Below, one piece after another: positions 2,059-27,081 of a DNA stretch of 64,000 nt. The stretch covers positions 96,001 to 160,000 of the forward strand of contig JAUVXV010000004.1 in the NCBI GenBank assembly GCA_030603365.1. Direction: 5' to 3'. The position numbers and the translations under genes were made by a program. Every line of letters starts with the position of its first letter. Within the stretch, counting starts at the first letter, position 1. Below the pieces are notes generated by a model. It saw nothing but the letters and a program-made list of their open reading frames with translations. It made no database searches and was not told the DNA's origin. Source of the DNA: Candidatus Heimdallarchaeota archaeon (GTDB lineage Archaea; Asgardarchaeota; Heimdallarchaeia; Heimdallarchaeales; Heimdallarchaeaceae).

Positions 2059-2189
2059 TGGTGGCCGGACCGTGATTTTCAGCGTTTCAGAACGCATCTG
2101 AAACTTTTTGAACACGGGATCACCTGGTGTTTTGCCCTTTTTTTAGAAGGTCCCAAACCAGGGGCCATACCAAGCTAGACCATCCGGCC
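2059..2189 (-). tRNA. tRNA-Pro(TGG) with two introns: 37/38 (2129-2151) and T-loop 59/60 (2076-2106)
   Basis: Reverse complement gives acceptor stem GGCCGGA/TCCGGCC plus ACCA, anticodon arm CCTGG-TT-TGG-G|A-CCAGG and T arm CCGTG-TTCAAA|T-CACGG. BHB helices are TTTG/CAAA and TTCA/TGAA. Confidence 0.92.
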
Positions 2190-2251
2190 AGTAATTCTAC
2201 ACTATCTGCCTTCCCCTCATCTAATTAAGCTTTTCGTTCTTGTTACTCCAT

Positions 2252-3781
2252 TCAATCAAACATCGCTCTGTTTTGTAACATTAGAATTATGTCTTCTATC
2301 AACCAATTGTTGACTTGAAGCCACAGATTGTTAGTTATAAAATCTGCAACTACTTGATCAGCTGTAAATGGTTTACTCATTACACTAGGTGGATAATCAG
2401 CTCTATCTCTATCATATGCTCCAAAATTGTGACTTATCTCGTGCTGAACCAAGTTCTCTGCCCAATCAGCTACTATTCCTATCCAACTATAATCACCTAA
2501 TTCTTCAGATTCAGCAAAATGAAAAGCAGCATTCCTTTCATAATAAGCAAAACCGAAATGTTCAGAGGTTTGGTTTGAGAAACTTGTAAATAAATCAAAA
2601 CCATGATTGTCTGGTGATCGACCATATTCAACATCCCAACTACCCTCTAAACCTAGTAATTCCCCTGCTGTTTCAAGAGCGATAGTGCCTACCACACCCA
2701 TACTCACATCTTTAGGATGCCAAGGAAGTTCAACAACTGGTATGAGCTTAATGCCAAAGTCTTTCTCAAAAAGATATGAAGTTTCATACATTGTAGTAAA
2801 AAGATCATTTCTTGCGACTTCTTTTCCAGAAATCTCCCAATTATCATTTAACATTAGAACGAACACCCTATGTTCATATTGAAGAATAGACATATCATCA
2901 AGATACACATGGGTTGAGTTATCTGCATAGACGAATACAAATTGTAGAGCAACATATGATAATCCATCGCCCTCACCAAAATGAATCAGCTGATTCTGTG
3001 GCGACGTACTGTCTAAGATTAAAGACATGTTCGATTTAATTCCATCTATAAACAAATTAACTTCAATTGAACTATTGGTGCTCTCTATTTGTTGGTTAAA
3101 GGATAAATAATGACTGTTAGTTAGATTTACAGTTTGAGAGATACTTATCCAAGTTGAGTTTCCGGGCTCAATAGTCTCAATATTGGTAAAGCGAACACAG
3201 TTACCATCTAAAGAAGGGTGAGTAGAAATCCCCGCAACAGCTTTATCATCTTGTATGTCGCCTTCCCAGTTGTTTAGATATCCACTGAAGTCCCCGTTGA
3301 CTATCTGTTCAACCTCGATTTGGTTAGTAACATTTAGAGAGAAATCTATGTTTTCTTTTATCTCTGCAACTCTATTTTCAAATGTAACCCCAAAAGAATA
3401 AATATTGTATTCTCCAATATTCAGTGCAAATAATCCTGTTGATATGTTAAGTAAAGGTCCCATCTCAACTGAAGCAACTTGTGACCCTCGAGTAATCTCC
3501 TGGTTTAACTCATAGATGATAGAACCTTTTAAAGAATAAGCATCAGATGAAATACCTATCTCTACTGATTTAATAACTGCCTTTTCTGTTCCCTCTAGTT
3601 CTATTTCAAATGTAATAGGAACTGTTTCTCCTTTTATCTTTTCCAAAGGCATTGAAATAAAAATCAATTCAGCATTTCCAGAAAAATAGTTGTTTATTAT
3701 CATATCTGTAAGAAAATATCCTCCTATCCCTACGCCTAACATTCCAATAAAAATCAGACCAATTAAGGCAGTTCTTCTCAT
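2252..3781 (-). CDS. Membrane-anchored or secreted metzincin (reprolysin/M12-like) zinc metalloprotease
   Basis: N-terminal hydrophobic anchor, HEISHNFGAYD zinc motif, Met-turn PSVMS, central NGDF...W beta-sandwich-like domain. ATG at 3781 preferred over TTG at 3802. Confidence 0.75.
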   Translation of the reverse strand: MRRTALIGLIFIGMLGVGIGGYFLTDMIINNYFSGNAELIFISMPLEKIKGETVPITFEIELEGTEKAVIKSVEIGISSDAYSLKGSIIYELNQEITRGSQVASVEMGPLLNISTGLFALNIGEYNIYSFGVTFENRVAEIKENIDFSLNVTNQIEVEQIVNGDFSGYLNNWEGDIQDDKAVAGISTHPSLDGNCVRFTNIETIEPGNSTWISISQTVNLTNSHYLSFNQQIESTNSSIEVNLFIDGIKSNMSLILDSTSPQNQLIHFGEGDGLSYVALQFVFVYADNSTHVYLDDMSILQYEHRVFVLMLNDNWEISGKEVARNDLFTTMYETSYLFEKDFGIKLIPVVELPWHPKDVSMGVVGTIALETAGELLGLEGSWDVEYGRSPDNHGFDLFTSFSNQTSEHFGFAYYERNAAFHFAESEELGDYSWIGIVADWAENLVQHEISHNFGAYDRDRADYPPSVMSKPFTADQVVADFITNNLWLQVNNWLIEDIILMLQNRAMFD

Positions 3782-3854
3782 CTTGTAGTCACTAAAATAC
3801 AATTACATGAACCATTAAATATTCTTTGTATTGTAAAAAAAGAAAAAGAAAAAC

Positions 3855-4568
3855 TTATACTTTTTCTGCAGCTACTTCTGCTTTCTCCCCCATTCTTCTT
3901 TCTGTACCTGTAAGTAGTCTTTTGATATTAGCTTTATGTCTCCAGAAAACAAGAACGACCATAATAGAATTTACTATTAGAGCCCATAAACTATTGTTAA
4001 ACCAGAAATCATTTCCTGCAAATATCCAATATAATGGTGGGGATAATAAAGCAACTGTGAGATTCGAGAGAGACATAAGTTTGGTTGTTTTAAGTAATAC
4101 AAACCAGATTATCATGATACAAATGAAGGGGATGGGATTAACTCCTAACAAAGCACCTGCTCCAACAGCAGCAGATTTTCCTCCTTTGAATTTTAACCAA
4201 ATAGGATAACTATGACCAATAACAGCCATGAAAGATACAAGAGCAAGTAGAAATCCTCTATCAAGTAACTGAGGAAATTCAACACCTGTATTGGTTGAGA
4301 AACCCGAATAATTGTCACCTACTACCCAAAGATAAATTCTTGCCAATAGAACTGCGATAGCTCCTTTGGTCATATCAAGAACCATCGTTAGAAGACCTGC
4401 CTTTTTACCAAGTGTTCTCATGACATTGGCTGTTCCCATATTACCTGAACCATAATCACGAATATCAATTCCACGACCAATTTTTCCAACCAAATATGCA
4501 ACTGGAATAGAACCGAAGAAATATCCTAGAACAACTAATACGATTTCATAAATAATCTCGTTAGCCAT
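3855..4568 (-). CDS. plsY: Glycerol-3-phosphate acyltransferase PlsY
   Basis: GYFFGSIP, DIRDYGSGNMGTANVMR, GHSYPIWLKFKGGK, RHKANIKRLLTGTE: all three PlsY motifs present. Confidence 0.95.
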   Translation of the reverse strand: MANEIIYEIVLVVLGYFFGSIPVAYLVGKIGRGIDIRDYGSGNMGTANVMRTLGKKAGLLTMVLDMTKGAIAVLLARIYLWVVGDNYSGFSTNTGVEFPQLLDRGFLLALVSFMAVIGHSYPIWLKFKGGKSAAVGAGALLGVNPIPFICIMIIWFVLLKTTKLMSLSNLTVALLSPPLYWIFAGNDFWFNNSLWALIVNSIMVVLVFWRHKANIKRLLTGTERRMGEKAEVAAEKV

Positions 4569-4657
4569 AAAAGAAAGAATTCAGACTTTTATTTAAAATT
4601 TGTCAGAAATAGCTAAGACTAGAAAAACAAATTAAAATAAAAAAGAGAGAGAGATTT

Positions 4658-4891
4658 TTATTTCTCAACACAGATCATGGTCATAGTACTACGTACATTC
4701 TCTAATGCTCGCAGATTCTCTGTAACAATTTTCTTTAACTCATCCATTGTATCTGCTTCTATTTTTGCAATTAAGTCATAAACGCCGTAAACCACATGCG
4801 CTTCACCAACATTTGGTAGAGACATAAGTTGGTCGAGTACGCTCTTTTCTTCTCCAATCTCACTATTTATCAAGATGAATGCAGTTGCCAT
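4658..4891 (-). CDS. Stand-alone Lrp/AsnC ligand-binding domain protein
   Basis: 77 aa, AFILIN...EAHVVYGVYDLIAKIEA...VRSTMT. Confidence 0.9.
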   Translation of the reverse strand: MATAFILINSEIGEEKSVLDQLMSLPNVGEAHVVYGVYDLIAKIEADTMDELKKIVTENLRALENVRSTMTMICVEK

Positions 4892-5060
4892 TAGGAATTC
4901 ACCAACAGAATGTATGTATTGGCGTTTAATAAACTTTGTTCAGAAGTGTTTAAATTAGAATGAAAAATTTCAATAGAAATTCAATTTACCAGATGCCTTG
5001 ACTGATGGTTTTGGGACAAAACAGCTGTATTTTATATGTTTAAATATACGATTATATAGA

Positions 5061-5840
5061 ATGCAAGAAGTTATCTTTCCAGAAAGACTTAGGGAACTAG
5101 CTAAACCATATTTCTACAGTGCAGAGAAAGAAAATCCTACCAACACGTTGATTATTCTTGTACATGGTTTTGGTGCTTCACCCACTGAAACACGACCATT
5201 AGGTGAGTTTCTATGCAAGAAAGGTTTCGATATCCATGGTATTCTGTTAACAGGTCATGGAACTGATTCTAAAGATTTGGATAATATTAGTTGGAAAGAT
5301 TGGTATCAAGATATAGAAAAGATTTACCTTGCAAATATAAAAAAGTACGAGAATATATTCATAGGGGGTCTTTCGTTAGGGGGAGCTTTATCATTGTACG
5401 CTGCAACAAGACTAGATTTCAAAGGAGTCTTTACAATTAATGCTCTGTATAGATTCAAGAGAACTTGGACTATTTTTGCTTGGATATCACATTTTTTCAA
5501 ATTACATAGACCTAGAAATTTGGAAAGAGTGAAATGGTATGTGGAAAATGATCTTTTTGCATATCAAGATGATTCAACATATGCAGCATATCAAATTCTG
5601 AAAATGTTAAGATTTTTACATGTAGAAATTAAAAGAATTAAGATCCCAGCATTGATAATACAATCAAAAGAAGATAAAACAATAAATCCACAGAGTGCAG
5701 AATGGATATTTGAGGATTTAAAAACCGAAAAAGAATTTATGCAACTCGATAGAGGAGATCATATTCTTACTGTTGATGATAGCAAATATTTGGCTTTTGA
5801 AAAGATTTTGGACTTTCTAAATAATAAAATAAGCAAATAA
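5061..5840 (+). CDS. Alpha/beta hydrolase (carboxylesterase or monoacylglycerol lipase-like)
   Basis: LVHGF oxyanion motif, GLSLGG nucleophile elbow, QSKEDKTI Asp, DHIL His. Confidence 0.88.
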   Translation: MQEVIFPERLRELAKPYFYSAEKENPTNTLIILVHGFGASPTETRPLGEFLCKKGFDIHGILLTGHGTDSKDLDNISWKDWYQDIEKIYLANIKKYENIFIGGLSLGGALSLYAATRLDFKGVFTINALYRFKRTWTIFAWISHFFKLHRPRNLERVKWYVENDLFAYQDDSTYAAYQILKMLRFLHVEIKRIKIPALIIQSKEDKTINPQSAEWIFEDLKTEKEFMQLDRGDHILTVDDSKYLAFEKILDFLNNKISK

Positions 5841-5888
5841 CGAAAGATATTAAAAAGAATATTGAAAGAAAGCGATGTAACAACAAAT

Positions 5889-5997
5889 GCCTCAATGGTG
5901 TAGCTCGGCCAATCATTGCGGACTTTCACATGCGAAAGTCCGCGTGACTAAACAGGATTATCCGCAGACCCGGGTTCAAATCCCGGTTGAGGCACCA
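5889..5997 (+). tRNA. tRNA-Glu(TTC) with 37/38 intron (about 5929-5959)
   Basis: Acceptor GCCTCAA/TTGAGGC plus ACCA, anticodon arm GCGGA-CT-TTC-A|A-TCCGC, T arm CCGGG-TTCAAAT-CCCGG. Upstream BRE/TATA-like CGAAAGATATTAAAAA. Confidence 0.9.
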
Positions 5998-6086
5998 CTC
6001 CCTTTTTAAAAATTAACTTTAACACCCACAAATAAATTTAAAAAATCCAATAACTTGAGTTTATTACTTAAGATATTTCTTCCCTT

Positions 6087-6171
6087 GCGGGGATTGCCGA
6101 GTGGTCAAAGGCGCTGGACTTAGGATCCAGTTCTTAGTGATTCGGGAGTTCGAATCTCCCTCCCCGCACCA
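6087..6171 (+). tRNA. tRNA-Leu(TAG), no intron
   Basis: Acceptor GCGGGGA/TCCCCGC plus ACCA, anticodon arm CTGGA-CT-TAG-GA-TCCAG, long variable arm, TTCGAAT T-loop. Confidence 0.95.
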
Positions 6172-6303
6172 ATTTTTTATTTCAGATGCAACTTTATGTC
6201 GCTCTTCAATGATGTCATTACGTGGTCTATACATTTTTTTCACTTTCAAGTCACTCTGTCTGTTTTTCTTATATATGACAAAACCAATGTTAACTTGGTC
6301 ATC

Positions 6304-6765
6304 ATGTCATCGTACTCACTCGTTCAGGAGAATCTTTTAGATTTAGGACTAGTAGCAGTGAAGTTTGACTTACAGCTGGGTCCTATGATTTTAAACAACC
6401 ATTCATCTTTGTCAGAAAATCTATTGATGAAGCTGGCAATAAAAGGGACATCAACATTAATGAATGGTTTAGGATACGACTTTTCGAATTCTAGAAGATT
6501 TAGAGGTTTATTTCAACTATCCGAGGATTATTTCGTATATGGATTTGATCTAGTACTTATTGATGACCAAGGTGATGAGGGGGGGTTATCTCCCATAATC
6601 CTCTTTTTGGTCTTTCCTACAAGTTCTTTACCATTGATAGGGTCAAACATTCGTTCAATAGAAGAGGTTCTTTATCATTCTACACAGTCTTTTCTAACAT
6701 TATCAAACATTGTTTCGAATTTTGATTCCTCTATTTTAACATCTATAGCGAATCTTCTAATCTAG
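6304..6765 (+). CDS. Hypothetical protein with uDENN/longin-like N-terminus
   Basis: LVAVKFDLQLGPMIL resembles the hhhhxFDxxxGP start of uDENN/longin domains, followed by a beta-hairpin (YFVYGFDL) and IILFLVFP strand. Confidence 0.55.
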   Translation: MSSYSLVQENLLDLGLVAVKFDLQLGPMILNNHSSLSENLLMKLAIKGTSTLMNGLGYDFSNSRRFRGLFQLSEDYFVYGFDLVLIDDQGDEGGLSPIILFLVFPTSSLPLIGSNIRSIEEVLYHSTQSFLTLSNIVSNFDSSILTSIANLLI

Positions 6766-6913
6766 TAAAAAACAATGAATATATTCCTGTTTTTCATCTA
6801 ATTATTCGATAAAATTATTTTAATTAGTAACTACTTTTTCTTGACTAGGTGAAAAATAACCTATTTATATCCAAAGAAGCTATAAAGAAGATAGCAACCC
6901 TAAAGTTGATTTT

Positions 6914-9190
6914 ATGAGTAAAGAAGAAATTATCGAACCTATAAAAAAAAGGAAATGGAGTTTCTGGGGGTATGGACTTCTTTTCTTCACAGTATTTTAC
7001 ATTGCATTAATGTTTATACTTGAAGCTGCACTTCAACCAAGGGAAAGTATGACAGCAACAATAGTTTCATACATAATAGGTATTATAGGATTAGCAATTT
7101 TTGCAGGTCTTGTCAGAGACAAAACTAGAGTACTGATATCAATACCTATTCTCTTGATAATAGTGTTTGGTGCAGGATATCTGTTTAATTATGTTGCAGA
7201 TGCACCTGTTTATAATCCCTTAGCTCCAGTTTCAGAACGTACGGGAACTCTTCTTGATACGTTTGATGTATTAAACGAAACAGAGCTAGTTGCTAGTTTA
7301 CCAGAAGAATTCAATCGGGAAACTATAGAATTTTACAGCCAATTTGCTTTCGTTATTGATCTGATAATAGCTTTACCGTTATTCATTTTCGGTACGCTTT
7401 CGCTTACGTGGTTTGTTCAGATTTTTACGTCGGCATTGAAGATATTTGTAATATTTAGTATATTGTTTGCCTTGATATTCTTCCTGATTGGGCTAGTGAT
7501 AACACCGTTTGTACATTTGTTATTCTCAAGTTTCTTAATACTTGGAAGTGACCTTCTTCCAGGAGCACTTTATGTAATGGAAGGAATTTCAATATTCACT
7601 GGTGATTTTGGAAGTCTGACGCAAGCGGAAATAGATGAAGCGATAGCGGCGTTTTACAATGCTTCATTTTACTTCAACCAAGCCGCATTAAACCTAGATG
7701 CATTACAAAAAGCAGGAATCATAGGTTTTGCACAAATGATACCGATTCTAGGAACTGTTGTGTCAAATCTTTATTGGTTTTCATTAGCAGCTTTACACCT
7801 GTCCTCCGGTCTAGGCCCATTTGCAAATGGAACATTCTACATAATGAATGGACTTCAAGACGCAATGGATGCAATGAATATAAGTTCATCTCCAATGCCT
7901 CTATCTGTTGATGATGGAAACACAGTGAAGAGAGCCCCAGGAATAAATGATACTCTATTTAACGATGCAATCGAAGTTGTGAATGAAGGTCTATTAATAT
8001 TGGGTGATAGTACAGATTACATTCAACAAGCTTTAGATGATCTAAAGAATGTCTCGTTAGAAGATGTAATAGGAAATATAACCAGAATTCCTGGAATACC
8101 CATAGAAGCTATCGAACCTGTAATGGAAAGCATGACCATGGTTGAAGATTATTTAGCAATGTTCGAAGGTGGAGTAACAGTAATTTCAGCTCTTCTTGAT
8201 AGACCTGAAATTAGTCCTGGTGTGGAAAGTGAATATGCTACTTTAACTCATTTCTTATATGGAGCATACAATCTATTCAAAGCAGGAGATAACATAGCAG
8301 AAGTCACTGCTTTTAACGGCACTGCTGAGAACTTTGAATATTCATATGGTAATTTTTCCATAGTTCAAGACCAATTACATGAACCAGAGATAGAAGCTGT
8401 AGCAACATCAGATACACCTTTCCTAAACTCAACAGTGATGTTTGTTATAGACATGGTTGACATAGGCGTACCTCTGTGTGCTCTAGGCTATTCATTAGCT
8501 ACAAATTTCTTCGATTTAGATGATATGATGAATGTATTCGCTGGTCCAGCAAATTACGAAGATGTTTCTAATTATCCTGAGTTGATCAATACACTTGATG
8601 GTCTTCGGACAACAACAAATAATTTGTCAACCAATGCAACAATAGTAGATGCAAAAATCAATGATGTAGAAGTAAAAGCTTCAGTTGATACCTATGGTCC
8701 TTTGAACGATATTGCACTTACTTTTACATCTCAGCTTTCTGATTTTGGTTTTGTGGAATATGTTAACAATGCAAACTATGTCGTAAATTCATTCTATTTC
8801 ATGTTCGTTGGAGTCATGGAATTGAGTTTCGTAGCAGGGAATATAACAGCTGGTCAAACACAATTTCTTGCAGCTAATTATGCAGCAGCCAATACTAGTT
8901 TCCTAAACGCCAATACAAGCTTAGCTTCTTCCATTTACAATTTTAATCAATCAATTTTATACATGGATGATGCAGTGAATATTGGAGGAATGACGCAACT
9001 ACAAACGTCACTTACTGCTCTAACAACAATTCGTGATAATCTACTAGGACTTCAAGCTGATCTAAACCAGCTTATGGTGTATATGGCTGATCCTGTAGGA
9101 AATTTGACAGACATAACTGATTTGCTGACTGCAATGTTAGGCGTTTTAGCTGATGTGAATGATGATTTAGAAGTCATAACTGCGCAATAA
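6914..9190 (+). CDS. Large hypothetical membrane protein (about 5-6 N-terminal TM helices plus long helical acidic domain)
   Basis: 758 aa ORF with hydrophobic N-terminal third and Asn/Ala/Leu-rich amphipathic helices. Confidence 0.8.
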   Translation: MSKEEIIEPIKKRKWSFWGYGLLFFTVFYIALMFILEAALQPRESMTATIVSYIIGIIGLAIFAGLVRDKTRVLISIPILLIIVFGAGYLFNYVADAPVYNPLAPVSERTGTLLDTFDVLNETELVASLPEEFNRETIEFYSQFAFVIDLIIALPLFIFGTLSLTWFVQIFTSALKIFVIFSILFALIFFLIGLVITPFVHLLFSSFLILGSDLLPGALYVMEGISIFTGDFGSLTQAEIDEAIAAFYNASFYFNQAALNLDALQKAGIIGFAQMIPILGTVVSNLYWFSLAALHLSSGLGPFANGTFYIMNGLQDAMDAMNISSSPMPLSVDDGNTVKRAPGINDTLFNDAIEVVNEGLLILGDSTDYIQQALDDLKNVSLEDVIGNITRIPGIPIEAIEPVMESMTMVEDYLAMFEGGVTVISALLDRPEISPGVESEYATLTHFLYGAYNLFKAGDNIAEVTAFNGTAENFEYSYGNFSIVQDQLHEPEIEAVATSDTPFLNSTVMFVIDMVDIGVPLCALGYSLATNFFDLDDMMNVFAGPANYEDVSNYPELINTLDGLRTTTNNLSTNATIVDAKINDVEVKASVDTYGPLNDIALTFTSQLSDFGFVEYVNNANYVVNSFYFMFVGVMELSFVAGNITAGQTQFLAANYAAANTSFLNANTSLASSIYNFNQSILYMDDAVNIGGMTQLQTSLTALTTIRDNLLGLQADLNQLMVYMADPVGNLTDITDLLTAMLGVLADVNDDLEVITAQ

Positions 9191-9221
9191 TCCTTCTCTT
9201 TCTTTTTTTCTTTTATTTTTC
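9191..9221 (+). terminator. Archaeal T-rich terminator tract
   Basis: TCCTTCTCTTTCTTTTTTTCTTTTATTTTT directly after the stop codon. Confidence 0.5.
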
Positions 9222-9319
9222 CCTATTAAAATTGGTTTTTCTCATTGCCTAAAGAGAATAACTTTTTATTAAAAATACATTTACTGAATTAGTAATATTT
9301 CATAGGTAAGGGTACTACT

Positions 9320-10588
9320 ATGAGTAATGTTTTCCTAGGATATGATCACAGTAAAGGAGATTTCCACGAGTTAAAGGACGGTTCTAAATTCCAAACTCTA
9401 CTTGATACTGAATCAGGTGATATAGCCAGAAAATTGTCTGGATTAGGATTAGATGGTCTTTTAACTTTTAATCACGAAAAAGAAGAATGGCATCTTATTT
9501 TTGGTAGCCACCTCGGTCTTGTTGCACAAAGAACAGGAAGAAGAATAGCTGATACAATCAGTAGATCCGGATTCATGTTAGCTTCTGGAGAACGAGCTGG
9601 AACAAAATGTAGATTAGAACAAATAACTGAAGACAATATTGGTGACCTACACAAAACAGTACAAGAGAAATATATTGATACTGATCTTGGTGGTTTTCAG
9701 GGTGATTCAAGACAAGATTCCTTCCCAAGGAAGGTTTTTTCACAAGACATACCTCCACAAAAGGGAATACCTGTTGTAACACCAGAACCAGTAGAAGATC
9801 AGAAACTTATGCCCCCTCAAGATATATACGAGCCAAAGCCAATTGTTGAACCAACACATGAACCAGCAATCGAAGAATCTTATACACCAGAACCTGAGCC
9901 TGAACCTCAAACCATGGTTTTCTCTGAGCCTGAGCCAGTAACTGAACCAGAGCCTCCAGCTAAAACCTATGTAGAACCTGTGGTTGAACCAGTAACTGAA
10001 CCAGAGGTTAGTGAAGAACCAGTTGTTGAGGAAATGGTTAAAGAAACTGTCGAGGAAGTTGTTGAAGAAGTCGTTGAAGAAGTCGTTGAAGAAATAGCTG
10101 AAGCTGTAGCTGATGCCGTTGCTGAGGAGATTTCAGACGAAACAATATCTGGCGTGATAAAAGAGGCAATAGAAGAAAAAGCTGAAGAAATTGTAGAGAG
10201 CGTTGTTGACGAAGTAATGGAAGAAATTGAAGAAGAAATTGAAGAAGCTCTTGAAGAAGCTCTTGAAGAAGATAAACCACTTGAAGATGTGGTTGAGGAT
10301 ATTGTCGAAGAGGTCATTGAAGAAATTGTTGAGGAAGTAACTGACGCAGTAGAAGAAATCGCAGAAGACGCTATGGAAGATATAGTTGAAGAAGTTCTCG
10401 AAGAAACTGTCGAGGAAATAAGTGAAGAAAAAGCAGAACACATAGCTGAAGATGTCGTCGAAGAAGTTATTGAGAAAGTTACTGAAGATATTGTTGAAGA
10501 TGTCGTCGAAGAAAAAGTGGAAGAAATAACTGAAGCGGTTGAAGAAGCCGTTAAAGAAGAATTCAACATAGAAACTGAAGATGATTAA
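9320..10588 (+). CDS. Hypothetical protein: globular (possibly gelsolin-like) head, Pro/Glu linker and long acidic EE-hydrophobic repeat tail
   Basis: 422 aa with PEPEPEP linker and EEVVEEVVEEIA tetrad repeats over about 190 aa. Confidence 0.8.
   Translation: MSNVFLGYDHSKGDFHELKDGSKFQTLLDTESGDIARKLSGLGLDGLLTFNHEKEEWHLIFGSHLGLVAQRTGRRIADTISRSGFMLASGERAGTKCRLEQITEDNIGDLHKTVQEKYIDTDLGGFQGDSRQDSFPRKVFSQDIPPQKGIPVVTPEPVEDQKLMPPQDIYEPKPIVEPTHEPAIEESYTPEPEPEPQTMVFSEPEPVTEPEPPAKTYVEPVVEPVTEPEVSEEPVVEEMVKETVEEVVEEVVEEVVEEIAEAVADAVAEEISDETISGVIKEAIEEKAEEIVESVVDEVMEEIEEEIEEALEEALEEDKPLEDVVEDIVEEVIEEIVEEVTDAVEEIAEDAMEDIVEEVLEETVEEISEEKAEHIAEDVVEEVIEKVTEDIVEDVVEEKVEEITEAVEEAVKEEFNIETEDD
10015..10560 (+). 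repeat. Low-complexity coding repeat (GTTGAAGAA-like units encoding EEVV/EEIV/EEAL)
   Basis: Imperfect 12-nt periodicity such as gttgaagaagtc-gttgaagaagtc and gaagaagctctt x2. Confidence 0.8.
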
Positions 10589-18740: not shown

Positions 18741-18795
18741 GAAGCTAGCCTGAATTTTGAAGAATTATGTTGGATTTGGAGAAGCTAGCTTCAGA
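18741..18795 (+). repeat. Hairpin element copy A (GAAGCTAGCC...AGCTAGCTTCAGA), candidate ncRNA or dispersed repeat
   Basis: 9-bp inverted repeat GAAGCTAGC (18741-18749) / GCTAGCTTC (18784-18792); both ends are shared with the element at 28878-28958 on the minus strand. Confidence 0.5.
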
Positions 18796-18837
18796 AAATA
18801 ATATTGATTACCATTTAAAAACACAAAAATTTGCGTT

Positions 18838-19011: not shown

Positions 19012-19165
19012 TGTATTCAGTTCTTGTACTAAAAGACTCTATTTAAACTCAACAAAATCTTAGAAATGAAAGGACAAAGTTTGAACAAGTTTCATAACGT
19101 GCGTAAAGAACTTTCGTGAATTTAAGTGATTAAAAAAAAATTAGAATTTAAGCAATCCCAATGTA

Positions 19166-19792: not shown

Positions 19793-19860
19793 AGACCAAT
19801 TTTGTTGTTTACATATTTATACTTTTGTAGAAATTGAAAAAAAAGAAAGATTGTGGGTAA

Positions 19861-20799
19861 TCAGCCCATTAAATTCTTTAGAACAGCCATCACTGTATGT
19901 AATCTGTTTTCTGCTTCATCAAACACAATGCTATGTTCGCTTTCAAAAACCTCTTCTGTAGCTTCTTTATGTTTGTAAGGTAAGCAATGCATGAAAACAT
20001 AATCAGATTTTGCATTAGAACAAAGTTCTTCAGTAATTATATAATCCTTGAAAGCTGCTAATTTGGCTTTTTCTTGATCTTCTTCACCCATAGAGATAAA
20101 AGTGTCAGTTACAACAATGTCAGCATCTGTAACAGCTGATACAGAATTATTAGTAATAACAATCTTTGCTCCTGTTTCTTCTGCAAATTCTTCTGCAAGT
20201 GCAACGATGTCGCTAGATGGTTCATAACCCTTAGGTGTAGCAACAGACATATCCATACCCATCTTAGCACATCCAATCAATAATGAATTACAGACATTGT
20301 TTCCATCACCAACCCAGGTTAGTTTTAATCCTGCAAGCCGACCTTTATGTTCTTCAATAGTTAGTAAATCAGCTAGAATTTGTAGTGGATGATATTTGTC
20401 AGATAACGCATTGATTATGGGAATCTTAGAATATTTTACTAGTTCCTCAACATCTTCATGGGCATAGACTCTGGCTAAGACACCATCAACCATTCGAGAA
20501 AGGACGCGGGAAGTATCTTTGATTGTTTCTCCACTACCTAGTTGGATATCTGCAGAACTTAGAAACAGAGCATGACCACCTAAGTAATACATTGCTACCT
20601 CAGTTGAGACACGAGTACGAGTTGATCGTTTTTGGAAAATCATTCCAAGTGTTAATCCCTCAAGAGGTAATTCAGTTCTGTTAAAAGCTTTGAATTTAGC
20701 TTTCAAGCGTTTAGATTCGTCAAGAAGAAAACGTATTTCTTCTGCTGTATAATCTACCAAGGATAAAAGTGATCTACCTTTTAAATCCATTTTACTCAC
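19861..20799 (-). CDS. argF: Ornithine carbamoyltransferase
   Basis: FQKRSTRT, HPLQILAD, GDGNNV, SMG, HCLP, EAENRLH. Confidence 0.96.
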   Translation of the reverse strand: MSKMDLKGRSLLSLVDYTAEEIRFLLDESKRLKAKFKAFNRTELPLEGLTLGMIFQKRSTRTRVSTEVAMYYLGGHALFLSSADIQLGSGETIKDTSRVLSRMVDGVLARVYAHEDVEELVKYSKIPIINALSDKYHPLQILADLLTIEEHKGRLAGLKLTWVGDGNNVCNSLLIGCAKMGMDMSVATPKGYEPSSDIVALAEEFAEETGAKIVITNNSVSAVTDADIVVTDTFISMGEEDQEKAKLAAFKDYIITEELCSNAKSDYVFMHCLPYKHKEATEEVFESEHSIVFDEAENRLHTVMAVLKNLMG

Positions 20800-20981
20800 T
20801 GGGTCAAAGGAATAAAGAAAATATAAAAAATGTTCGATATGACTTGCTGCTTCCTCTTTCTCTCTTTCTGATTCATTACAACATAAGAATAGATAAAGAA
20901 ATTAATAACTTCTCAATCGAAAAAAAAGTTGATATTACATAGAATTCTTAAATTAGTAAAAATAAGGTATTGTTGAGAAAA

Positions 20982-21374
20982 ATGGTTGATTATAAACGAT
21001 TTATTATTTCAATTGTGACAGGTGCAGTTCTTGGAGTAGCCTGTATTATAGGTGTAGGACTAAGAGTTCCTGGAGGGTATGCAGACAATATAGGGTATCT
21101 GATAGGAATATGGGCAATGAGAGTTGTTCTAGGTATCATAATAGGTTTAGCTGGAGGAATCATTCTTATCAAAGGTGAAGGATGGGAAAAATGGGTAAAT
21201 GCCGGATTAAGAGGAACATTATTTGGTATAATAGTATCAGCAGCAGTACTACTAATGGATCAATATGTTGGCTATTCTACATTTGTAGCAGGAATAGCAT
21301 ATGGAACTATAATAGATTTAGTGGCTACATTCTTCACAAAGAAAAAGAAAGAAGAAAAAATAGAAAAAGATTAG
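20982..21374 (+). CDS. Small four-TM membrane protein
   Basis: GAVLGVACIIG...GIAYGTIID hydrophobic segments with basic C-terminal tail. Confidence 0.75.
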   Translation: MVDYKRFIISIVTGAVLGVACIIGVGLRVPGGYADNIGYLIGIWAMRVVLGIIIGLAGGIILIKGEGWEKWVNAGLRGTLFGIIVSAAVLLMDQYVGYSTFVAGIAYGTIIDLVATFFTKKKKEEKIEKD

Positions 21375-21406
21375 AAATCCATTGTATTCTTTCTGAAAAA
21401 TGAGAG

Positions 21407-22471
21407 TTAGATGGGTGTTCCTTTCCACCAATTCCTCTTCTTTAGAAATTTGGCGAGATAAACCAAACCAACCATAATTGGTATCTCCCAGAATAAGCCC
21501 ATTGTTGTACCTAATGCTGCTACTGAACCAGTTCCATATATGGCAATAGCAGTTGCAATAGCAATTTCAAAATGACTAGATGATCCAATAATTACAGTAA
21601 TTACACCTTCTTTGTAAGCTAAATTTGTGAATCTTGTAATCAATAAATTATAACCTACTACGATAAGAAAACCCAATAAAAGTGGTACCGATACTAGTAA
21701 GAGCAGATTAAAATTAGTTATCATCACATTTCCATTCAATGAAAACAGTACAATAAGAGTTGTCAACAAAGCTAGTATTGATATTTTACCAACAATTGGG
21801 ATGTATTTACTCTTAAACCATTCTTCACCTTTTGCTCTTATAATTAGTGTTTTACTTATTACACCTAATATAAGTGGAATTCCAATAAAAACTGCTACTG
21901 AAATTATGAGTGATATAATATCTATGGAGATATTAGAAATTCCAGATAGTAATACAACCATAGGGGCATATCCAATAATAATAGTAACAGTATTGAGACT
22001 TGTAGTGATCACATTTTGTTCTTGATTTCCATCAGCTAAATAACCCCAAATCAGAACCATAGCTGTGCAAGGACTAGAGGCTAAGAGAATTATTGCAAAC
22101 ATTAATTGTTCATTTCCAGGAAGGAATAATCGAGCAAGTCCCCATCCTACAAAAGGTGCTATTATCCAATTTGATATTAAAGTTAGAATAATTGGTTTAG
22201 GATTTTTTGCTAATTTCTTTAATTCTGAAGCTTTAAGGTTCAGCATTGCAGGATACATCATAAAAAAAAGACATATTCCAATTGGTATTGATATCCCCCT
22301 AACTTGCCAATTATCAATCGTTTCAGCAATACTTGGTGCATAGAGTGAAAGTAAGATACCTACACCCATACAGATTACAATCCAAATAGGTAATAATTTT
22401 TCAAATAAACTAAGCCCTTCTTTCGTTTTAGTGACATCCTCAATTTGACTTGTTTCGACAGTACCACCCAA
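21407..22471 (-). CDS. acr3: Arsenite efflux transporter Acr3
   Basis: MMYP, NWIIAPF, PCTAMV, SHFEIAIATAI motifs. Confidence 0.93.
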   Translation of the reverse strand: MGGTVETSQIEDVTKTKEGLSLFEKLLPIWIVICMGVGILLSLYAPSIAETIDNWQVRGISIPIGICLFFMMYPAMLNLKASELKKLAKNPKPIILTLISNWIIAPFVGWGLARLFLPGNEQLMFAIILLASSPCTAMVLIWGYLADGNQEQNVITTSLNTVTIIIGYAPMVVLLSGISNISIDIISLIISVAVFIGIPLILGVISKTLIIRAKGEEWFKSKYIPIVGKISILALLTTLIVLFSLNGNVMITNFNLLLLVSVPLLLGFLIVVGYNLLITRFTNLAYKEGVITVIIGSSSHFEIAIATAIAIYGTGSVAALGTTMGLFWEIPIMVGLVYLAKFLKKRNWWKGTPI

Positions 22472-22496
22472 TTCTTTTCACAACCGAAAAATTTAT

Positions 22497-22541
22497 TACA
22501 TATCAAAAATATCTGTTTCATATAAATAATTTTTGATGTAT
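22497..22541. promoter_or_regulatory. Putative ArsR operator between divergent acr3 and arsR
   Basis: Inverted repeat ATCAAAAAT (22502-22510) / ATTTTTGAT (22529-22537) with ArsR-like ATCAA and TTGAT half-sites. Confidence 0.5.
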
Positions 22542-22589
22542 AATTAATTATAAATAATTTATAAATATAGTTAGAGCAATGTGAAATGT

Positions 22590-23012
22590 ATGGACTATAA
22601 TAAAAAAGAAGTGGAAATAATCAAAACACTAGCAAAATGTGAAGATATTGAAGATGCAGAAGTACATTATAATAAATTAACAGAATACAGAAAGAAAATA
22701 CTAGATGAATCAAACCTAGCAAACTTATCAAAGTTCTTGGAAGCTTTTTCTCATGTTGATAGAGTTTTAATTCTTAGAATCTTAATGGAAAAGGATCGAT
22801 GTGTATGTGAATTAGAGGTAATATTAGGAAAAAGTCAATCCAATATATCCTATCACCTTAGAATTCTTGAAAATCTAAATTTGATTAAAGGTTGGAAAAA
22901 GGGTAAATTTACACATTATTCTGTTGTTCAAAAATCCTTAGAATACCTTAGAGATTTATTTAACAATTGGATTAATGATGACATTATCAAAGTTAATCCA
23001 AATCTACTTTAG
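22590..23012 (+). CDS. arsR: ArsR/SmtB family transcriptional regulator
   Basis: RVLIL...CVCEL...SQSNISYHLRIL...KKGKFTHY; divergent from acr3. Confidence 0.92.
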   Translation: MDYNKKEVEIIKTLAKCEDIEDAEVHYNKLTEYRKKILDESNLANLSKFLEAFSHVDRVLILRILMEKDRCVCELEVILGKSQSNISYHLRILENLNLIKGWKKGKFTHYSVVQKSLEYLRDLFNNWINDDIIKVNPNLL

Positions 23013-23103
23013 ATTATTCTAAAACTGAAATAGTTTATTTATCCACTATTTCAAATAGAATAAGAATAGAAGAGAAAAAGAAAGTAGAAATAATAGAAAA
23101 AGA

Positions 23104-24309
23104 TTAGAAGAAGGTTGGTTCACCTTCAAAAACTCTTTTTGGAGGTTCCATCTTCATGGTTTCTTCAGCAGACAATATCTCAATTAGTTCATAATTGGAT
23201 ATACCCAGACCCATCTTCTCAGCGAAAACAACTGTTTCATATGGATCTTTATACGGACCATGGACACGTGTGAAAGGATGTAAATCTTCGTCTGGATTAA
23301 GGTTAACATGTTTAAAGTAAGGGGGAATGTTCTTTTCAATTAGACCCTCTTTCTTAATGAGATCGAGTGTTGCGGTTTCAACAGCAACTATGTCTTTGCT
23401 TCCAACAACGCCAATATCATTAACAACTGGAGGTTGGCCTAGACCCATACAATCGCAATAAACCGTGATTTGATTTAGAAAATTTATATACATCACTTTA
23501 GCTGGATTAAAGGTTTCTAGAACTTTTTGTGTTGCTATTGCCATCATTTCGTTAAACGCTGTATAACTTTCTCGAGGTAATTTTACTGCACCTAATCCTC
23601 CATCAACCTGCAAGCAGGTCATACATTGGTGACAATCATGATAATTTCTTCTTAGATTATTTTTCTCTTCGTCATAGCTTAACGCACCATATGGACATGA
23701 TTCTACAAGTTTTTTAGCAAGTTCAGGATTACCCTTAGCTTTATCCCAGTATTTATCAACGCTTGAAGCTCCATGGATTTTTCTCCATCGAGTAGGACCC
23801 GAGTAACCACCTAGAGCTAGGTTTTTGATTGCTCCTCCATAGCCGCAAGCTCCATGTCCTTTAGCATGAGAAACATCTACAAGAACATCTGCGTCTTTTA
23901 GTGCTCCTGCTAATTCTAGATTATCTATCCCTCTATAATTAACTTCAACTGTTGTTGTGTAACCATCTTTTACTCCTGCAATAGGAATGATAGGACACCC
24001 ACAAGTTTCTTGAGTATAACCTCTATTTACGGCATTGTAAACTGAGGTGGGATTGTCGGTAACAAAAGGAAAGCCTCCTCTTTTCTTAATAGCTTCAACA
24101 ATTCTGCGAATAAAGAATACAGGTATTGTTTGGTAACCATCATTGAAGCCTAGATGCATTTTAACAGCTACTTTATCCTTCTTTTCAATAGGAGTTTCAT
24201 CTAACAATAATTCGGTAATTTTGTCTACTTTTGCAGAAAAAGAAGCAAAAGCTGAATTTCTACCATGTTGGACAGAACCAAAGTAAACTTTAGCTTTTTC
24301 TGTAGTCAT
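23104..24309 (-). CDS. DUF362 domain iron-sulfur protein
   Basis: VAVKMHLG, SHAKGH, GGAIKNLALG, CPYGA...CHQCMTC, YCDC, DIGVVGSKDIVAVE. Start set to ATG 24309 (MTTEK). Confidence 0.85.
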   Translation of the reverse strand: MTTEKAKVYFGSVQHGRNSAFASFSAKVDKITELLLDETPIEKKDKVAVKMHLGFNDGYQTIPVFFIRRIVEAIKKRGGFPFVTDNPTSVYNAVNRGYTQETCGCPIIPIAGVKDGYTTTVEVNYRGIDNLELAGALKDADVLVDVSHAKGHGACGYGGAIKNLALGGYSGPTRWRKIHGASSVDKYWDKAKGNPELAKKLVESCPYGALSYDEEKNNLRRNYHDCHQCMTCLQVDGGLGAVKLPRESYTAFNEMMAIATQKVLETFNPAKVMYINFLNQITVYCDCMGLGQPPVVNDIGVVGSKDIVAVETATLDLIKKEGLIEKNIPPYFKHVNLNPDEDLHPFTRVHGPYKDPYETVVFAEKMGLGISNYELIEILSAEETMKMEPPKRVFEGEPTFF

Positions 24310-24404
24310 ATTTTGCGTAAACTTTGAGTTATTAATAAAGGATTTGGATAAAGATTTTACTTGAACGAATACTATTTTAATATAATCTGACTTGATATTA
24401 TAGT

Positions 24405-25277
24405 ATGAACAACGATTCTTGGATAAAGGAAAAAACGTGCTTAATAACTGGGGCAAATGCAGGAATCGGAAAAGCAACAACAAGACAGATTGCGGATTTA
24501 GGTGCGAAAGTTATAATGGTGTGTCGTAATCCAGAGAAGGGAGAAAAAGCTCGACAAGAGATTATTCAAGCAACCAAAAACAAGAATGTCGAGCTTCTGA
24601 TTTGTGATTTAGCATCATTAAAAGATGTAAAACGCTTCGCTGAAGAATTTCTTATTAATCACTCAAATTTGCATGTCTTAGTTAATAATGCAGGAGTTTT
24701 CAGTATGAAGAGAACTACAACCAAAGATGGATATGAAAGTACTTTTGCAGTAAACTACTTAGCTCATTTCTATCTTACTAAACTAATGTCCCCCTTGTTA
24801 AAGAAAAATTCTCCCGCTAGAATTATTAATCTCTCTTCTGACATGCACAAATACTTTAAGATTAAATTGAATGATCCTCTATTAGAGAAAAGATATAGTG
24901 GTCAGCAAGCATATAGTAATTCTAAAACTGCAATGGTCTTGTTTTCTTATAAGTTAGTAAGAGAACTAGAAGGATCTGGAGTATCAGTATATGCAGTAAA
25001 TCCAGGACATGTTAAAACACAATTGACAACAGTTGGTCTACCTAATTGGTATAGGAAAATATCTGATCTAATTCCAAGTCGTCGAACTCCTGAAGAAGGG
25101 GCAGAAGTTTCTGTATATGCTGCCTCCTCAAATAATCTAGAGAAAATAACAGGTAAATATATTACTAAATTTAAAGAGAAAAAGTCAGCAAAGATGACTT
25201 ATGACCTTGCTAAACAAGATTATCTTTGGGAATTGAGTGAGAAATTAGTAGAAGAAGCAATTGAAAAAGAAAATTAA
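24405..25277 (+). CDS. SDR oxidoreductase (retinol dehydrogenase-like)
   Basis: TGANAGIG, CDLASL, NNAG, FAVNYLAHF, YSNSK. Confidence 0.92.
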   Translation: MNNDSWIKEKTCLITGANAGIGKATTRQIADLGAKVIMVCRNPEKGEKARQEIIQATKNKNVELLICDLASLKDVKRFAEEFLINHSNLHVLVNNAGVFSMKRTTTKDGYESTFAVNYLAHFYLTKLMSPLLKKNSPARIINLSSDMHKYFKIKLNDPLLEKRYSGQQAYSNSKTAMVLFSYKLVRELEGSGVSVYAVNPGHVKTQLTTVGLPNWYRKISDLIPSRRTPEEGAEVSVYAASSNNLEKITGKYITKFKEKKSAKMTYDLAKQDYLWELSEKLVEEAIEKEN

Positions 25278-25322
25278 TAAATGTTCATACTGCAATAAAC
25301 AAAAATCAAATAGGTTGTACAA

Positions 25323-26255
25323 ATGCCCAAACCTTACGCTGTAATTAATGAAGAAATAAAAGATGCATTAAAAGGAAAAGCAGGAGAAGAAAGGGCTAGG
25401 GAAATTAAGAGACTATTGAAAGCAATACATTGGGATGTAGGAGATTATAAGAGAATTAAAGATAAACTAAGACGCGAATTAGCAGAAATAGAAACGATGG
25501 AACAAGCTAAGAAAGCTTCTAGAAGTCGTACAAAAACTAAAAAAACCACTCCTCAGTTTTGTATAATTGGATCTACAAATAGCGGAAAAAGTACACTAAT
25601 CAATAATCTAACCGGTACCACAATTCCTGTTGAATCTTATCCATTCACTACAATTGAACCACAATACGGTGCAATGGAGTATGATAATATTAGTTTTCAA
25701 TTTGTTGAAATTCCTGCAATTTATGATGGTTGTTGGAATGGAGATAAATCCACTCTAGGTATGATATATTTTACAGACTGCGTTATGATACTGGGTCGTT
25801 CTCACGAAGACTTTGAATTAGTTCTAAAGGAATTAGCGGGACAGAATATAGAGCTAATAGGAGAAAGAATGAGTGATGGATTTATCCAAACAACACCTAG
25901 GAAGATACCAGCCTTCCTGGTTTTCGATAAAACAGATCCAAATTTACCTCCTTCTCATCTAAAGAAGATTCCTTCGGACAATCTTGAAGAGATAAAACAA
26001 AACATGATAAAAATCATAAAACCTGTACGGCTTTATACAATGAATTCTTTTAATGAGATACAAGAACAACCTGTAGTGTTTTTCAAAGATCAAATTACTG
26101 TTAAAGAAGTTATTCAGAAAGTGTATAAGGGAAAAGAAGAGATTTTCAAAGATGCGGTTATACTGGAAGGGGGACCAAATGGAAGAAGAAAAAGAGTAGG
26201 AATAACTTATGAACTTTCAGACAAAGATGTGATACATCTAACTTTTCACAAATAA
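25323..26255 (+). CDS. DRG/Obg-related GTP-binding protein with C-terminal TGS-like domain (divergent)
   Basis: GSTNSGKST P-loop, YPFTT switch I, RVGITYELSDKDVI TGS end; G3 reads EIPA. Confidence 0.8.
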   Translation: MPKPYAVINEEIKDALKGKAGEERAREIKRLLKAIHWDVGDYKRIKDKLRRELAEIETMEQAKKASRSRTKTKKTTPQFCIIGSTNSGKSTLINNLTGTTIPVESYPFTTIEPQYGAMEYDNISFQFVEIPAIYDGCWNGDKSTLGMIYFTDCVMILGRSHEDFELVLKELAGQNIELIGERMSDGFIQTTPRKIPAFLVFDKTDPNLPPSHLKKIPSDNLEEIKQNMIKIIKPVRLYTMNSFNEIQEQPVVFFKDQITVKEVIQKVYKGKEEIFKDAVILEGGPNGRRKRVGITYELSDKDVIHLTFHK

Positions 26256-26274
26256 AAATAAGAAGGGAGTAAAA

Positions 26275-26832
26275 TTACTCCAGTTTAGAACCACAGCTTT
26301 CACAGAATTTTGAACCTACAGGAGGTCTGTGACCACAATAGGGACAGTAATTAATCTCTCCAGTAGGAAAGATAACTTCAACTTGTTTCTTAGGTAAGGG
26401 TGTTTCAAATTCTGGTGCTGGCTCGTATTTGACTTCTTCACCGAAAATAATTTCTCCTGTTGCACCATCATAACTATATTGAATACCTCTTCTAGTACGA
26501 AGGTCAACAAGAATACGAAGCATGTTCTTTGATTTAATACCAACTTCTTGAGCTAGGTTCTCAACTTTTACTCTTCCTGTACGGTTTAAAGTAGATGAAT
26601 GAACGATATCTCTCATTCTCTTATCCCAATAGAGACTACTAAAACCACCTATGAAACTGAAGAAAGCAGGGATGAAAAGCCAATAACCCCAACTAGCCAA
26701 ACCTATGAAAGAAATGTTATAAGCTCGGAATATTAATGATAAAACACCTACTATTGTGAAAACTATGGCAGTTCCAAAAGCAGACAAGTTTCCTTTATAA
26801 TCTTTTTTCTGATAATATCTATCTTGAGACAT
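26275..26832 (-). CDS. Two-TM membrane protein with winged-helix (PCI-like) and zinc-ribbon domains
   Basis: VKVENLAQEVGI...ILVDL...YSYDGATGEI; C-terminal CPYCG...FCESCG. Confidence 0.72.
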   Translation of the reverse strand: MSQDRYYQKKDYKGNLSAFGTAIVFTIVGVLSLIFRAYNISFIGLASWGYWLFIPAFFSFIGGFSSLYWDKRMRDIVHSSTLNRTGRVKVENLAQEVGIKSKNMLRILVDLRTRRGIQYSYDGATGEIIFGEEVKYEPAPEFETPLPKKQVEVIFPTGEINYCPYCGHRPPVGSKFCESCGSKLE

Positions 26833-26958
26833 AGAATAACCTCAAGTAGGGAGGCTCATGGACTTTATTAAACTTAAGCATTCATTGAGAAATTATGAAG
26901 GGGAAACGAAACAAAAAACTTTTAATGGAACGAAGAACAGAAAAGATAGAATATAGGT

Positions 26959-27081
26959 GCCCAGATAGCTTAGCTGGGAGAGCGCAGGACTGAAGAAGAA
27001 TCTTTCAGAAATCCTGTTGTCGCGTGTTCAAGAAGGTTTCAGATGCGTTCTGTGACATTGAATATCACGCTCTGGGCTCCA
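26959..27081 (+). tRNA. tRNA-Phe(GAA) with two introns: 37/38 (26996-27010) and T-loop 59/60 (27033-27064)
   Basis: Acceptor GCCCAGA/TCTGGGC plus TCCA, anticodon arm CAGGA-CT-GAA-G|A-TCCTG, T arm GCGTG-TTCAAG|T-CACGC. BHB helices are CTGA/TCAG and TTCA/TGAA. Confidence 0.92.

Follow-up and report, generated by a model that had tools for sequence, protein, structure and literature searches.

Transposition of introns between tRNA genes is known from Thermoproteales (PMC4090602, PMC4033280), and the intron family described here, family A, is a further case of intron copying between tRNAs. Its host is an Asgard archaeon of the class Heimdallarchaeia (assembly G000; 3.65 Mb, 89% complete), in agreement with the Asgard lineage proposed in a sequence-only reading of the window, i.e., of the whole 64,000-nucleotide stretch of DNA analyzed. 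Compared with the transposed families described there, G000 is alike in its closely similar introns across isotypes of one genome, its multi-intron genes, its BHB junctions, and its (alpha-beta)2 endonuclease. It differs from what is described there in that family A resides in an Asgard host, is found at one position only, appears to have an old founding copy, is strongly conserved, and shows many precise losses; about 2 of about 25 introns in G000 belong to such families, against 28% in Thermoproteales, and the copying in G000 is therefore not large-scale. The Cys-intron system with its epsilon2 endonuclease shares the 59/60 position and the relaxed hBH motif with family A, and cleavage was demonstrated in vitro there; in the passages describing that system, however, the intron is 13 nt long (31–32 nt in family A) and a cross-isotype family is not mentioned. 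An Asgard census found T-arm BHB introns to be common, gained repeatedly, and missed by annotators (bioRxiv 10.64898/2026.10.13.758758; PMC11291895). Where copying was tested there, in Freyr-, Jordi-, and Atabey-type lineages, it proved rare, with 1.5% cross-isotype families (bioRxiv 10.64898/2026.10.13.758758), whereas the AB_125-like genus of Heimdallarchaeia studied here has two clear ones.

Host genes and their introns

The window holds a tRNA-Pro(UGG) gene (2059..2189, minus strand) and a tRNA-Phe(GAA) gene (26959..27081, plus strand), both with an encoded CCA and two introns, and a tRNA-Ala(UGC) gene (43403..43509, minus strand) that the sequence-only reading had missed. Each was found as a single copy, and neither a second copy nor a spliced-form sequence of any of them is present in the 89%-complete assembly. 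Removal of the introns gives a 77-nt tRNA-Pro(UGG), a 76-nt tRNA-Phe(GAA), and a 76-nt tRNA-Ala, all called by ARAGORN; the unspliced Pro and Phe genes were missed by both ARAGORN and Rfam, and in all, three essential tRNA genes of this window are missed or mangled by these two tools.

The 37/38 introns of Pro (23 nt; 2129..2151, minus strand) and Phe (15 nt; 26996..27010, plus strand) each have a 4/4 central helix; they had been called unrelated and are indeed absent from the similar intron pairs, and that of Pro recurs among the sister genomes with the same length and sequence only in G016. The 59/60 introns of Pro (31 nt; 2076..2106, minus strand) and Phe (32 nt; 27033..27064, plus strand), whose coordinates and lengths had been given exactly, belong to family A. 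The Pro intron combines the T-stem and a UUCA/UGAA helix (relaxed hBH) with an 8-bp hairpin; the Phe intron has the UUCA/UGAA helix and an imperfect intron-side stem, its pairing being read from the sequence. Both contain the same 17-nt core, at 2088..2104 in Pro (minus strand; UGCGU loop at 2092–2096) and at 27036..27052 in Phe (plus strand; UGCGU loop at 27044–27048). The TGAA(A/T)A at both intron 3′ ends and the T-arm core CGTG-TTCAA..TCACG of both hosts are seen in the sequence as previously noted. The Ala 59/60 intron (31 nt; 43420..43450, minus strand) has a 10-bp hairpin with a stem unrelated to family A and a UGUG loop (43436–43439, minus strand).

Predicted splicing

A 4-bp central helix, a 3-nt bulge, and at least one flanking helix (UUCA/UGAA plus T-stem) are present in Pro, Phe, and Ala, the Pro helix being the minimum-energy fold and those of Phe and Ala being read from the sequence. 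G000 encodes two EndA paralogues, of which the catalytic one is closest to Aeropyrum alpha (E=4e-36) and keeps the aligned specificity-loop lysine (with PMC3488258 as reference), and an RtcB ligase (E=4e-165). The assignment of all three 59/60 introns to predicted protein-spliced BHB introns is strongly supported. U54-U55-C56-A57 of the T-loop would pair with UGAA at the intron 3′ end, with the T-stem as exon helix; a broad-specificity (alpha-beta)2 endonuclease would make its cuts 3′ of base 59 and 5′ of base 60, leaving the exons to be joined by RtcB. Because UUCA sits in nearly every T-loop, such introns should be spliceable in almost any tRNA.

Descent, age, and inheritance

The inner parts of the Pro and Phe 59/60 introns are 0.81 (81%) identical and share the 17-nt block, which occurs exactly twice in the window (chance expectation 0.11 even with 3 mismatches allowed) and at no further site in the 3.65-Mb genome with up to 2 mismatches. 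Among 115 other Asgard 59/60 introns, compared without their last six bases, identity averages 0.44 and reaches at most 0.61, with shared blocks of no more than 8 nt; none of 5002 cross-family background pairs reaches 0.78 or 13 nt, and the Ala intron is only 0.46–0.50 identical to family A. By this comparison, the likeness of the two introns is one of descent, not design, from which it follows that copying between tRNA genes happened, as the sequence-only reading had proposed. Identity of at least 80% between isotypes of one genome, above the null, was found for Pro/Phe in G000 (0.81) and for Phe/Tyr in G008 (0.82); in G000, this is the one similar pair among 17 introns compared of about 25 present.

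The copying had also been called recent, and in this it was mistaken: as judged from sequence comparison and parsimony, it is old, both introns tracing to the root of the AB_125-like genus. The nearest neighbors of both G000 introns are orthologues in other species (0.90 and 0.88). On an RpoA′+EF-2 tree, poorly resolved at the base of the genus, Fitch parsimony gives the root state "present" for the Phe intron (17 present, 4 absent, 4 changes) and for the Pro intron (11 present, 10 absent, 7 changes); the Pro-negative score of G014 comes from a 3′ end in which the anticodon was not visible, and since this genome adjoins two negatives the Pro counts should stay unchanged. In the sister genera, Phe, Tyr, and Pro are intron-free. 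The 17-mer, when sought in related genomes, proved to be the family consensus, present in many species. Core identity is 0.91–0.93 across species whose fourfold sites are only about 46% identical (0.46–0.47), which shows that both copies were inherited and kept under purifying selection. The alternative offered in the sequence-only reading, a conserved hairpin, thus holds as well; the two readings are each partly true and not exclusive. Sequences of 31 bases are compatible with either Phe or Pro as the donor.

Between G010 and G013 on the one hand and G008, G012, and G024 on the other, loci 91–94% identical over 2.4–2.6 kb are distinguished by presence or absence of the entire intron, a pattern of precise loss that, on the parsimony counts, befell the Pro and the Phe copies several times each. 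The comparison genomes are draft MAGs, 72–92% complete, and for that reason losses are possibly inflated by mis-binning or interspecies exchange. With near-identical loci that differ by precise intron presence or absence, the genus (25 genomes) is a clean positive case.

Spread to other tRNAs

Family A comprises 38 copies in seven tRNA types. Besides Phe and Pro, its hosts are Tyr (two or more gains), Ser, Thr, Asn, and, in another family (f3; G026 and G028), Trp, which a 17-nt match links to Phe of the AB_125-like genus. It was seen at 59/60 only, most searches having been anchored on the T-loop, and the G000 core is at no other site. The role suggested for T-arm likeness is supported. The CGTG T-arm is carried in G000 by Phe, Pro, and Tyr only, and Tyr, the host so predicted, does gain the intron: it carries the family in five sister genomes, as two different family variants. 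All of the true metagenome matches (9/9) lie in Phe, Pro, or Tyr. A rough binomial gives modest values for T-arm guidance (P of about 0.03 to 0.003, depending on event counting), and only Tyr is a clean test of it, the Phe and Pro copy counts being inheritance and not separate events. The CCGTG stem of Pro(UGG) is in no outgroup examined and may therefore have arrived in Pro with the intron.

We consider it probable that family A is one old family of ordinary protein-spliced introns with a history of old copying, inheritance, losses, and later spread. As the comparison shows, the intron came into Phe or Pro close to where the genus arose and was copied to the other at that time; Tyr (on two or more occasions), Ser, Thr, and Asn received later copies, and Trp of another family holds one. 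For the route itself, ectopic gene conversion between tRNA genes via short T-arm identity, the chances appear about even. Such conversion would bring the intron in from a gene that carries it or, with an intron-free gene as template, remove it, at times replacing the T-stem as well. That Tyr, the sole other tRNA with the same T-arm, gained the intron repeatedly favors this DNA-level route. The Ser, Thr, Asn, and Trp hosts have only about 7+2 bases in common around the site, a short stretch for homologous conversion, and this counts against it.

Alternative explanations

Those same hosts, with almost no flanking identity, would be accounted for by an RNA route with the same history, in which the T-loop of another tRNA takes up an excised or circular intron by reversed EndA/RtcB chemistry and the product is reverse transcribed into the gene, while losses come from cDNA of mature tRNA. 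This would also explain why a single site is strictly used, why losses leave no scar, and why Trp of f3 matches Phe over 17 nt. We nevertheless hold it to be unlikely: only 2 of the 25 genomes yielded a reverse transcriptase, neither the repeated Tyr gains nor the T-stem change with the Pro gain is predicted by it, and a 2026 preprint saw no reverse-transcription signature among Asgard gains (bioRxiv 10.64898/2026.10.13.758758). In the AB_125-like genus, DNA conversion and RNA re-insertion can be tested against each other, and its intron family, copied between genes long ago, since spread to other tRNA types and lost many times, is well suited to studying how introns of this kind spread.

Delivery by mobile elements is less probable still. 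In the model of PMC3293823, an intron-bearing attachment site travels with viruses or plasmids whose integration targets tRNA 3′ ends; the intron stays behind in the rebuilt gene and then blocks later integration. An intron could be moved between families in this way (Trp in G026 and G028), and a duplicate of the 3′ half of tRNA-Cys, situated in G000 some 1.1 kb away from the Cys gene, resembles an integration scar. In G000, however, the 3′ ends of Pro, Phe, and Ala are not duplicated, the flanking genes scanned include no integrase, and the conserved loop described below would be left unexplained. No viral carrier of family A was found: both viral matches to the family pattern lie inside a phage tail gene and are attributed to chance, and the loose-pattern loci examined included no tRNA.

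A recent copy within the G000 genome, the main proposal of the sequence-only reading, is very improbable and as the origin of the Pro/Phe pair already refuted on the sequence evidence, both introns being genus-wide and nearer to orthologues than to each other, and the 17-mer being a consensus; the G000 Phe intron does start with AAGGTTTC, as do Pro-type introns of relatives, where most Phe orthologues have AATYG or AACCA, so that a short patch of later conversion is possible. Convergent design, in which 59/60 introns of about 30 nt become alike through BHB and hairpin constraints without copying, would fit the length (29–33 nt), TGAA end, and hairpin geometry common to such introns across Asgard classes, but it is scarcely credible, and for family A refuted by the background comparison (at most 0.61 and 8 nt vs. 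0.81 and 17 nt), as the site does not dictate the stem and the Ala intron has the design without the family A sequence.

Further candidates were rejected: a homing-endonuclease or group I/II intron (only 31–32 nt; Rfam in the window matches tRNA alone); a box C/D guide intron of the tRNA-Trp type (no C, D′, C′, or D boxes in the 31–32-nt sequences); an IS200/IS605- or REP-type hairpin element (Y1 transposase, PF01797, in 0/25 genomes; no copies outside tRNAs under the scan criteria); a CRISPR origin (the GTTTC...GAAAC ends are repeat-like, but G000 showed no CRISPR array); and, from the sequence, a nested intron via an inner TTCA/TGAA pair (the outer helix does not form and the product would not be a T-loop). 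No BHB-closed YGNG hairpin was found outside the three tRNA genes under the criteria of the scan; a look-alike hairpin at C14:47846 sits in what reads as a short ribosomal-protein gene.

The YGNG hairpin loop

Across the order, 59/60 introns with unrelated stems have a YGNG hairpin loop at a fixed position (22 of 31 sequence clusters), against 6/23 clusters in another order of the class, 0/36 in other Asgard classes, and 7% in shuffles; the motif was first spotted in part of the data used for these counts. The loop, YGNG(N), lies 11–13 bases from the 5′ cut and 19–21 bases from the 3′ cut. Its sharing among introns with unrelated stems, which is new here, suggests selection on the loop, although deep common ancestry or plain folding stability could also produce the pattern. 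Selection on hairpin and loop would most likely concern folding or recognition for splicing or intron turnover. More speculatively, the tRNA introns of about 31 nt in this order may constitute a class in which a protein (endonuclease, splicing helper, or mobility factor) reads the YGNG(N) loop, which would make the loop a lineage-specific cis signal, beyond the BHB motif, for splicing or spreading archaeal mini-introns. The conserved loop suggests that intron sequence beyond that motif matters in a lineage close to eukaryotes. No earlier account of such loop conservation in the tRNA introns of archaea came up in a literature search, although one may exist; "hairpin" and "loop sequence" are absent from the text of the Asgard census.

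YNMG tetraloops have four-base loops and a preferred C-G closing pair. Of the intron loops, UGCG, UGAG, CGCG, and CGAG fit YNMG, the consensus of the stable YNMG/UNCG tetraloops (PMC2346598), whereas UGUG (9/44 loops) does not, G at position 2 is fixed, many intron loops are five-base, and their closing pairs vary instead of being C-G. Family A itself was rejected as a YNMG tetraloop, its loop being five-base and closed by A-U, and UGUG loops being common.

In other intron positions, the loop was dropped for Tyr 37/38 and Lys D-arm introns, Tyr fitting a K-loop better and Lys varying. It is absent in G000 from the Lys and Met-i D-arm introns and the 16S intron, and is found in 0/23 and 2/14 of two sets of 37/38 introns. 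It is present in an unrelated D-arm intron of tRNA-Ile2 (18/18) and in the 31-nt Lys 37/38 introns of four genomes.

Related T-loop introns in two tRNA genes

In the source Heimdallarchaeota assembly (G000; 3.65 Mb, 33% G+C, 89% complete), tRNA-Pro(UGG) (2059-2189, minus strand) carries a 37/38 intron of 23 nt and a 59/60 intron of 31 nt, and tRNA-Phe(GAA) (26959-27081, plus strand) a 37/38 intron of 15 nt and a 59/60 intron of 32 nt. Excision yields normal tRNAs, and each gene is present once in this 89%-complete assembly. The sequence-only reading gave the coordinates and lengths of these introns exactly; it overlooked a third 59/60 intron in the window, of 31 nt, in tRNA-Ala(UGC) (gene 43403-43509, intron 43420-43450, minus strand). 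The 17-mer shared by the Pro and Phe introns occurs exactly twice without mismatch in the window; the rest of the genome has no copy of it, even when up to two mismatches are allowed.

The T-loop pattern was matched in 242 of 400 Asgard genomes and only rarely in the reversed control; 59/60 introns of about 30 nt are common in Asgard archaea. We gathered 161 59/60 introns and compared them with the last six bases stripped. The Pro and Phe introns were 0.81 identical with a 17-nt shared block; the background, set by 115 introns from outside the family and of similar length, was 0.44 (mean) and 0.61 (maximum), longest block 8 nt, and 0/5002 cross-family background pairs reached 0.78 identity or a 13-nt block. 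Clustering at 70% placed both in a single group of 38 (Phe, 17; Pro, 11; Tyr, 5; Trp, 2; Asn, Ser, and Thr, 1 each), hereafter family A. Identity and block above background, with the joint cluster, show that the two introns are homologous. In a pattern scan of GTDB genomes, true family A tRNA introns lay in records titled Heimdallarchaeota (AB_125 among them) or unclassified archaeon; bacterial matches lay outside tRNA genes. The AB_125 match shares its coordinates with that of G009, a genome of this genus, which places the window in the AB_125 genus. Among 59/60 pattern matches of the AB_125-like genus (25 genomes), a relative of the Ala(UGC) intron occurs in G004 alone, from a different clade.

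Splicing

In the Pro, Phe, and Ala genes, intron positions -6 to -3 read UGAA and can base-pair with U54-U55-C56-A57; the T-stem serves as the exon helix, and the 3' bulge consists of the last two intron bases plus U60. In Pro this pairing is the minimum-energy fold (z = -4.2), and the BHB motif is relaxed because the intron-side helix is offset; the intron-side stem is imperfect in Phe and of 10 bp in Ala. The genome codes for RtcB and two EndA paralogues; the catalytic one has the Aeropyrum alpha subunit as its nearest match and retains the broad-specificity loop lysine (PMC3488258). For ARMAN-2, in vitro cleavage of a relaxed 59/60 intron has been demonstrated (PMC3239211). We infer that all three introns are spliced.

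Age of the copy

Relatives were placed on an RpoA'+EF-2 tree; at fourfold sites they are just 42-58% identical to G000. The sequence-only reading had proposed a recent copy event. Each intron is, however, nearer its orthologue in other species (Pro, 0.90; Phe, 0.88 to one orthologue) than its partner, and Fitch parsimony places both at the genus root (Phe, 4 changes; Pro, 7 changes) and gives absence there for the Tyr copy. In sister genera, Phe and Tyr are intron-free with the CGTG arm already there, and Pro(UGG) is intron-free with T-stems other than the CCGTG type. Loci 91-94% identical across about 2.5 kb differ by an entire intron, scar-free; species with fourfold-site identity of 46-47% retain 91-93% identity in the 17-nt core, with a compensatory pair change in G005. 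Orthologue closeness, parsimony, scar-free loci, and conserved core thus show the copy to be old, selected, and repeatedly lost. In another family of archaea, tRNA-Trp of G026 has a 17-nt block in common with Phe of G023, and no such intron is present in tRNA-Trp of the related genome G033, suggesting either passage from one lineage to another or very long-term conservation.

Route of spread

If the T-arm guided copying, as the same reading proposed, other hosts with that arm should gain the intron. The CGTG-TTCAA..TCACG arm of Pro and Phe is common only to Tyr in G000, and Tyr bears family A in five sister genomes, as two variants, one a Pro-type copy in two genomes without family A in their own Pro. 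True metagenome matches were 9/9 in Phe, Pro, or Tyr, some duplicating known genomes. For T-arm guidance, a rough binomial gives P = 0.03 to 0.003. Ectopic gene conversion between tRNA genes via T-arm likeness would spread introns, and we judge it evenly balanced whether this was the route; its main difficulty is the hosts with little flanking identity (Ser, Thr, Asn, and Trp). The Pro T-stem has apparently shifted to CCGTG in the genus, as a conversion tract would produce, but among outgroups Pro T-stems are variable. Reverse transcriptase is scarce (2/25 genomes), and neither a Y1 transposase (25 genomes) nor, when looked for, a viral carrier of family A was found. Re-insertion of intron RNA is unlikely, and delivery by a mobile element is more doubtful still.

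The 52-62 pair is changed from U-A to A-U in both Phe and Pro of G003 and G019 (in Phe also of G006) and unchanged in Tyr of G003, as concerted change or conversion. The Cys gene is followed, at about 1.1 kb downstream, by a 3'-half tRNA-Cys duplicate (G000:C14:57892-57946, plus strand) that resembles an integration scar; a short Pro anticodon-arm duplicate lies about 30 bases after tRNA-Pro of G016.

Comparison with known families

The transposed intron families of Thermoproteales work alike and show comparable similarity (PMC4090602, PMC4033280); family A falls short of their scale. A census of October 2026 reported T-arm introns in Asgard archaea, with cross-isotype families at 1.5% in its focal Asgard lineages versus 28.3% in Thermoproteales, and left open the route of intron arrival (bioRxiv 10.64898/2026.10.13.758758). 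The genus, outside those focal lineages, is a counter-example to rare copying. The Pro/Phe pair is real, of a kind already known, and old instead of recent; its value lies in a testable series of gains and losses, and in the hairpin loop.

The YGNG hairpin loop

A YGNG loop, often with one added base, caps hairpins of stem-unrelated introns in 22/31 clusters of the order, 6/23 of another order of the class, 0/36 of other classes, and 7% of shuffles (order versus other classes, Fisher P 7e-11, overstated since kin are not independent). Its start lies at a distance of 11-13 bases to the 5' cut and of 19-21 bases to the 3' cut. Orthologous introns are conserved whole, so the argument stands on comparison across unrelated stems. 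Further introns capped by the loop are that in the D-arm of tRNA-Ile2, which is unrelated (18/18 genomes, closing pair covarying), the Tyr D-loop intron of G000 (loop UGUGU), and 31-nt Lys 37/38 introns of four genomes. It is scarce in other 37/38 introns (0/23 and 2/14), and is not in the G000 16S and Met-i introns nor, by minimum-energy fold, the Lys D-arm intron. Protein recognition is possible, and deep common ancestry may be the source; plain YNMG stability fits poorly because G2 is fixed, UGUG variants occur, and closing pairs vary.

The 16S rRNA carries, close to its 3' end, a BHB intron of 31 nt (G000:C8, about 10100-10130, minus strand), of the same size class and with loop AGUA. G030, from another family (f3), has many 59/60 introns, several of just 20-23 nt, without YGNG.

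Other introns and repeats

A second cross-isotype 59/60 family of the genus comprises Asn, Arg(UCG), and Lys(CUU); the Val(GAC) intron is a looser relative. Among 37/38 introns, that of Met-e has a 13-nt block in common with Leu(UAA) and an 11-nt block, partly BHB-fixed, with Leu(CAA) (the three genes at G000:C1:13454-13579, 94908-95034, and 46565-46675); a second, older cross-isotype family is possible. Within the window, tRNA-Asn(GUU) (48164-48271, plus strand) has a 37/38 intron of 32 nt and is miscalled Tyr(AUA) by ARAGORN when introns are allowed. In tRNA-Glu(UUC) (5889-5997, plus strand), 10 bases of the 37/38 intron are perfectly complementary to the gene's own 5' anticodon arm, and the central helix of this intron is just 3/4. 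A dispersed intergenic repeat pair (18783-18828 and 28845-28890) has AGCTAGCTTCAGA ends, with no link to introns seen. No Pro(CGG) or Arg(CCG) gene was found in the G000 assembly; a tRNA-like gene at G000:C13:71399-71475 (plus strand) has an irregular anticodon arm. The tRNA-Tyr 37/38 intron (gene at G000:C1:422135-422290, minus strand) is conserved genus-wide, with a K-loop-like GUGAG...AUGAUC motif, possibly an L7Ae site.
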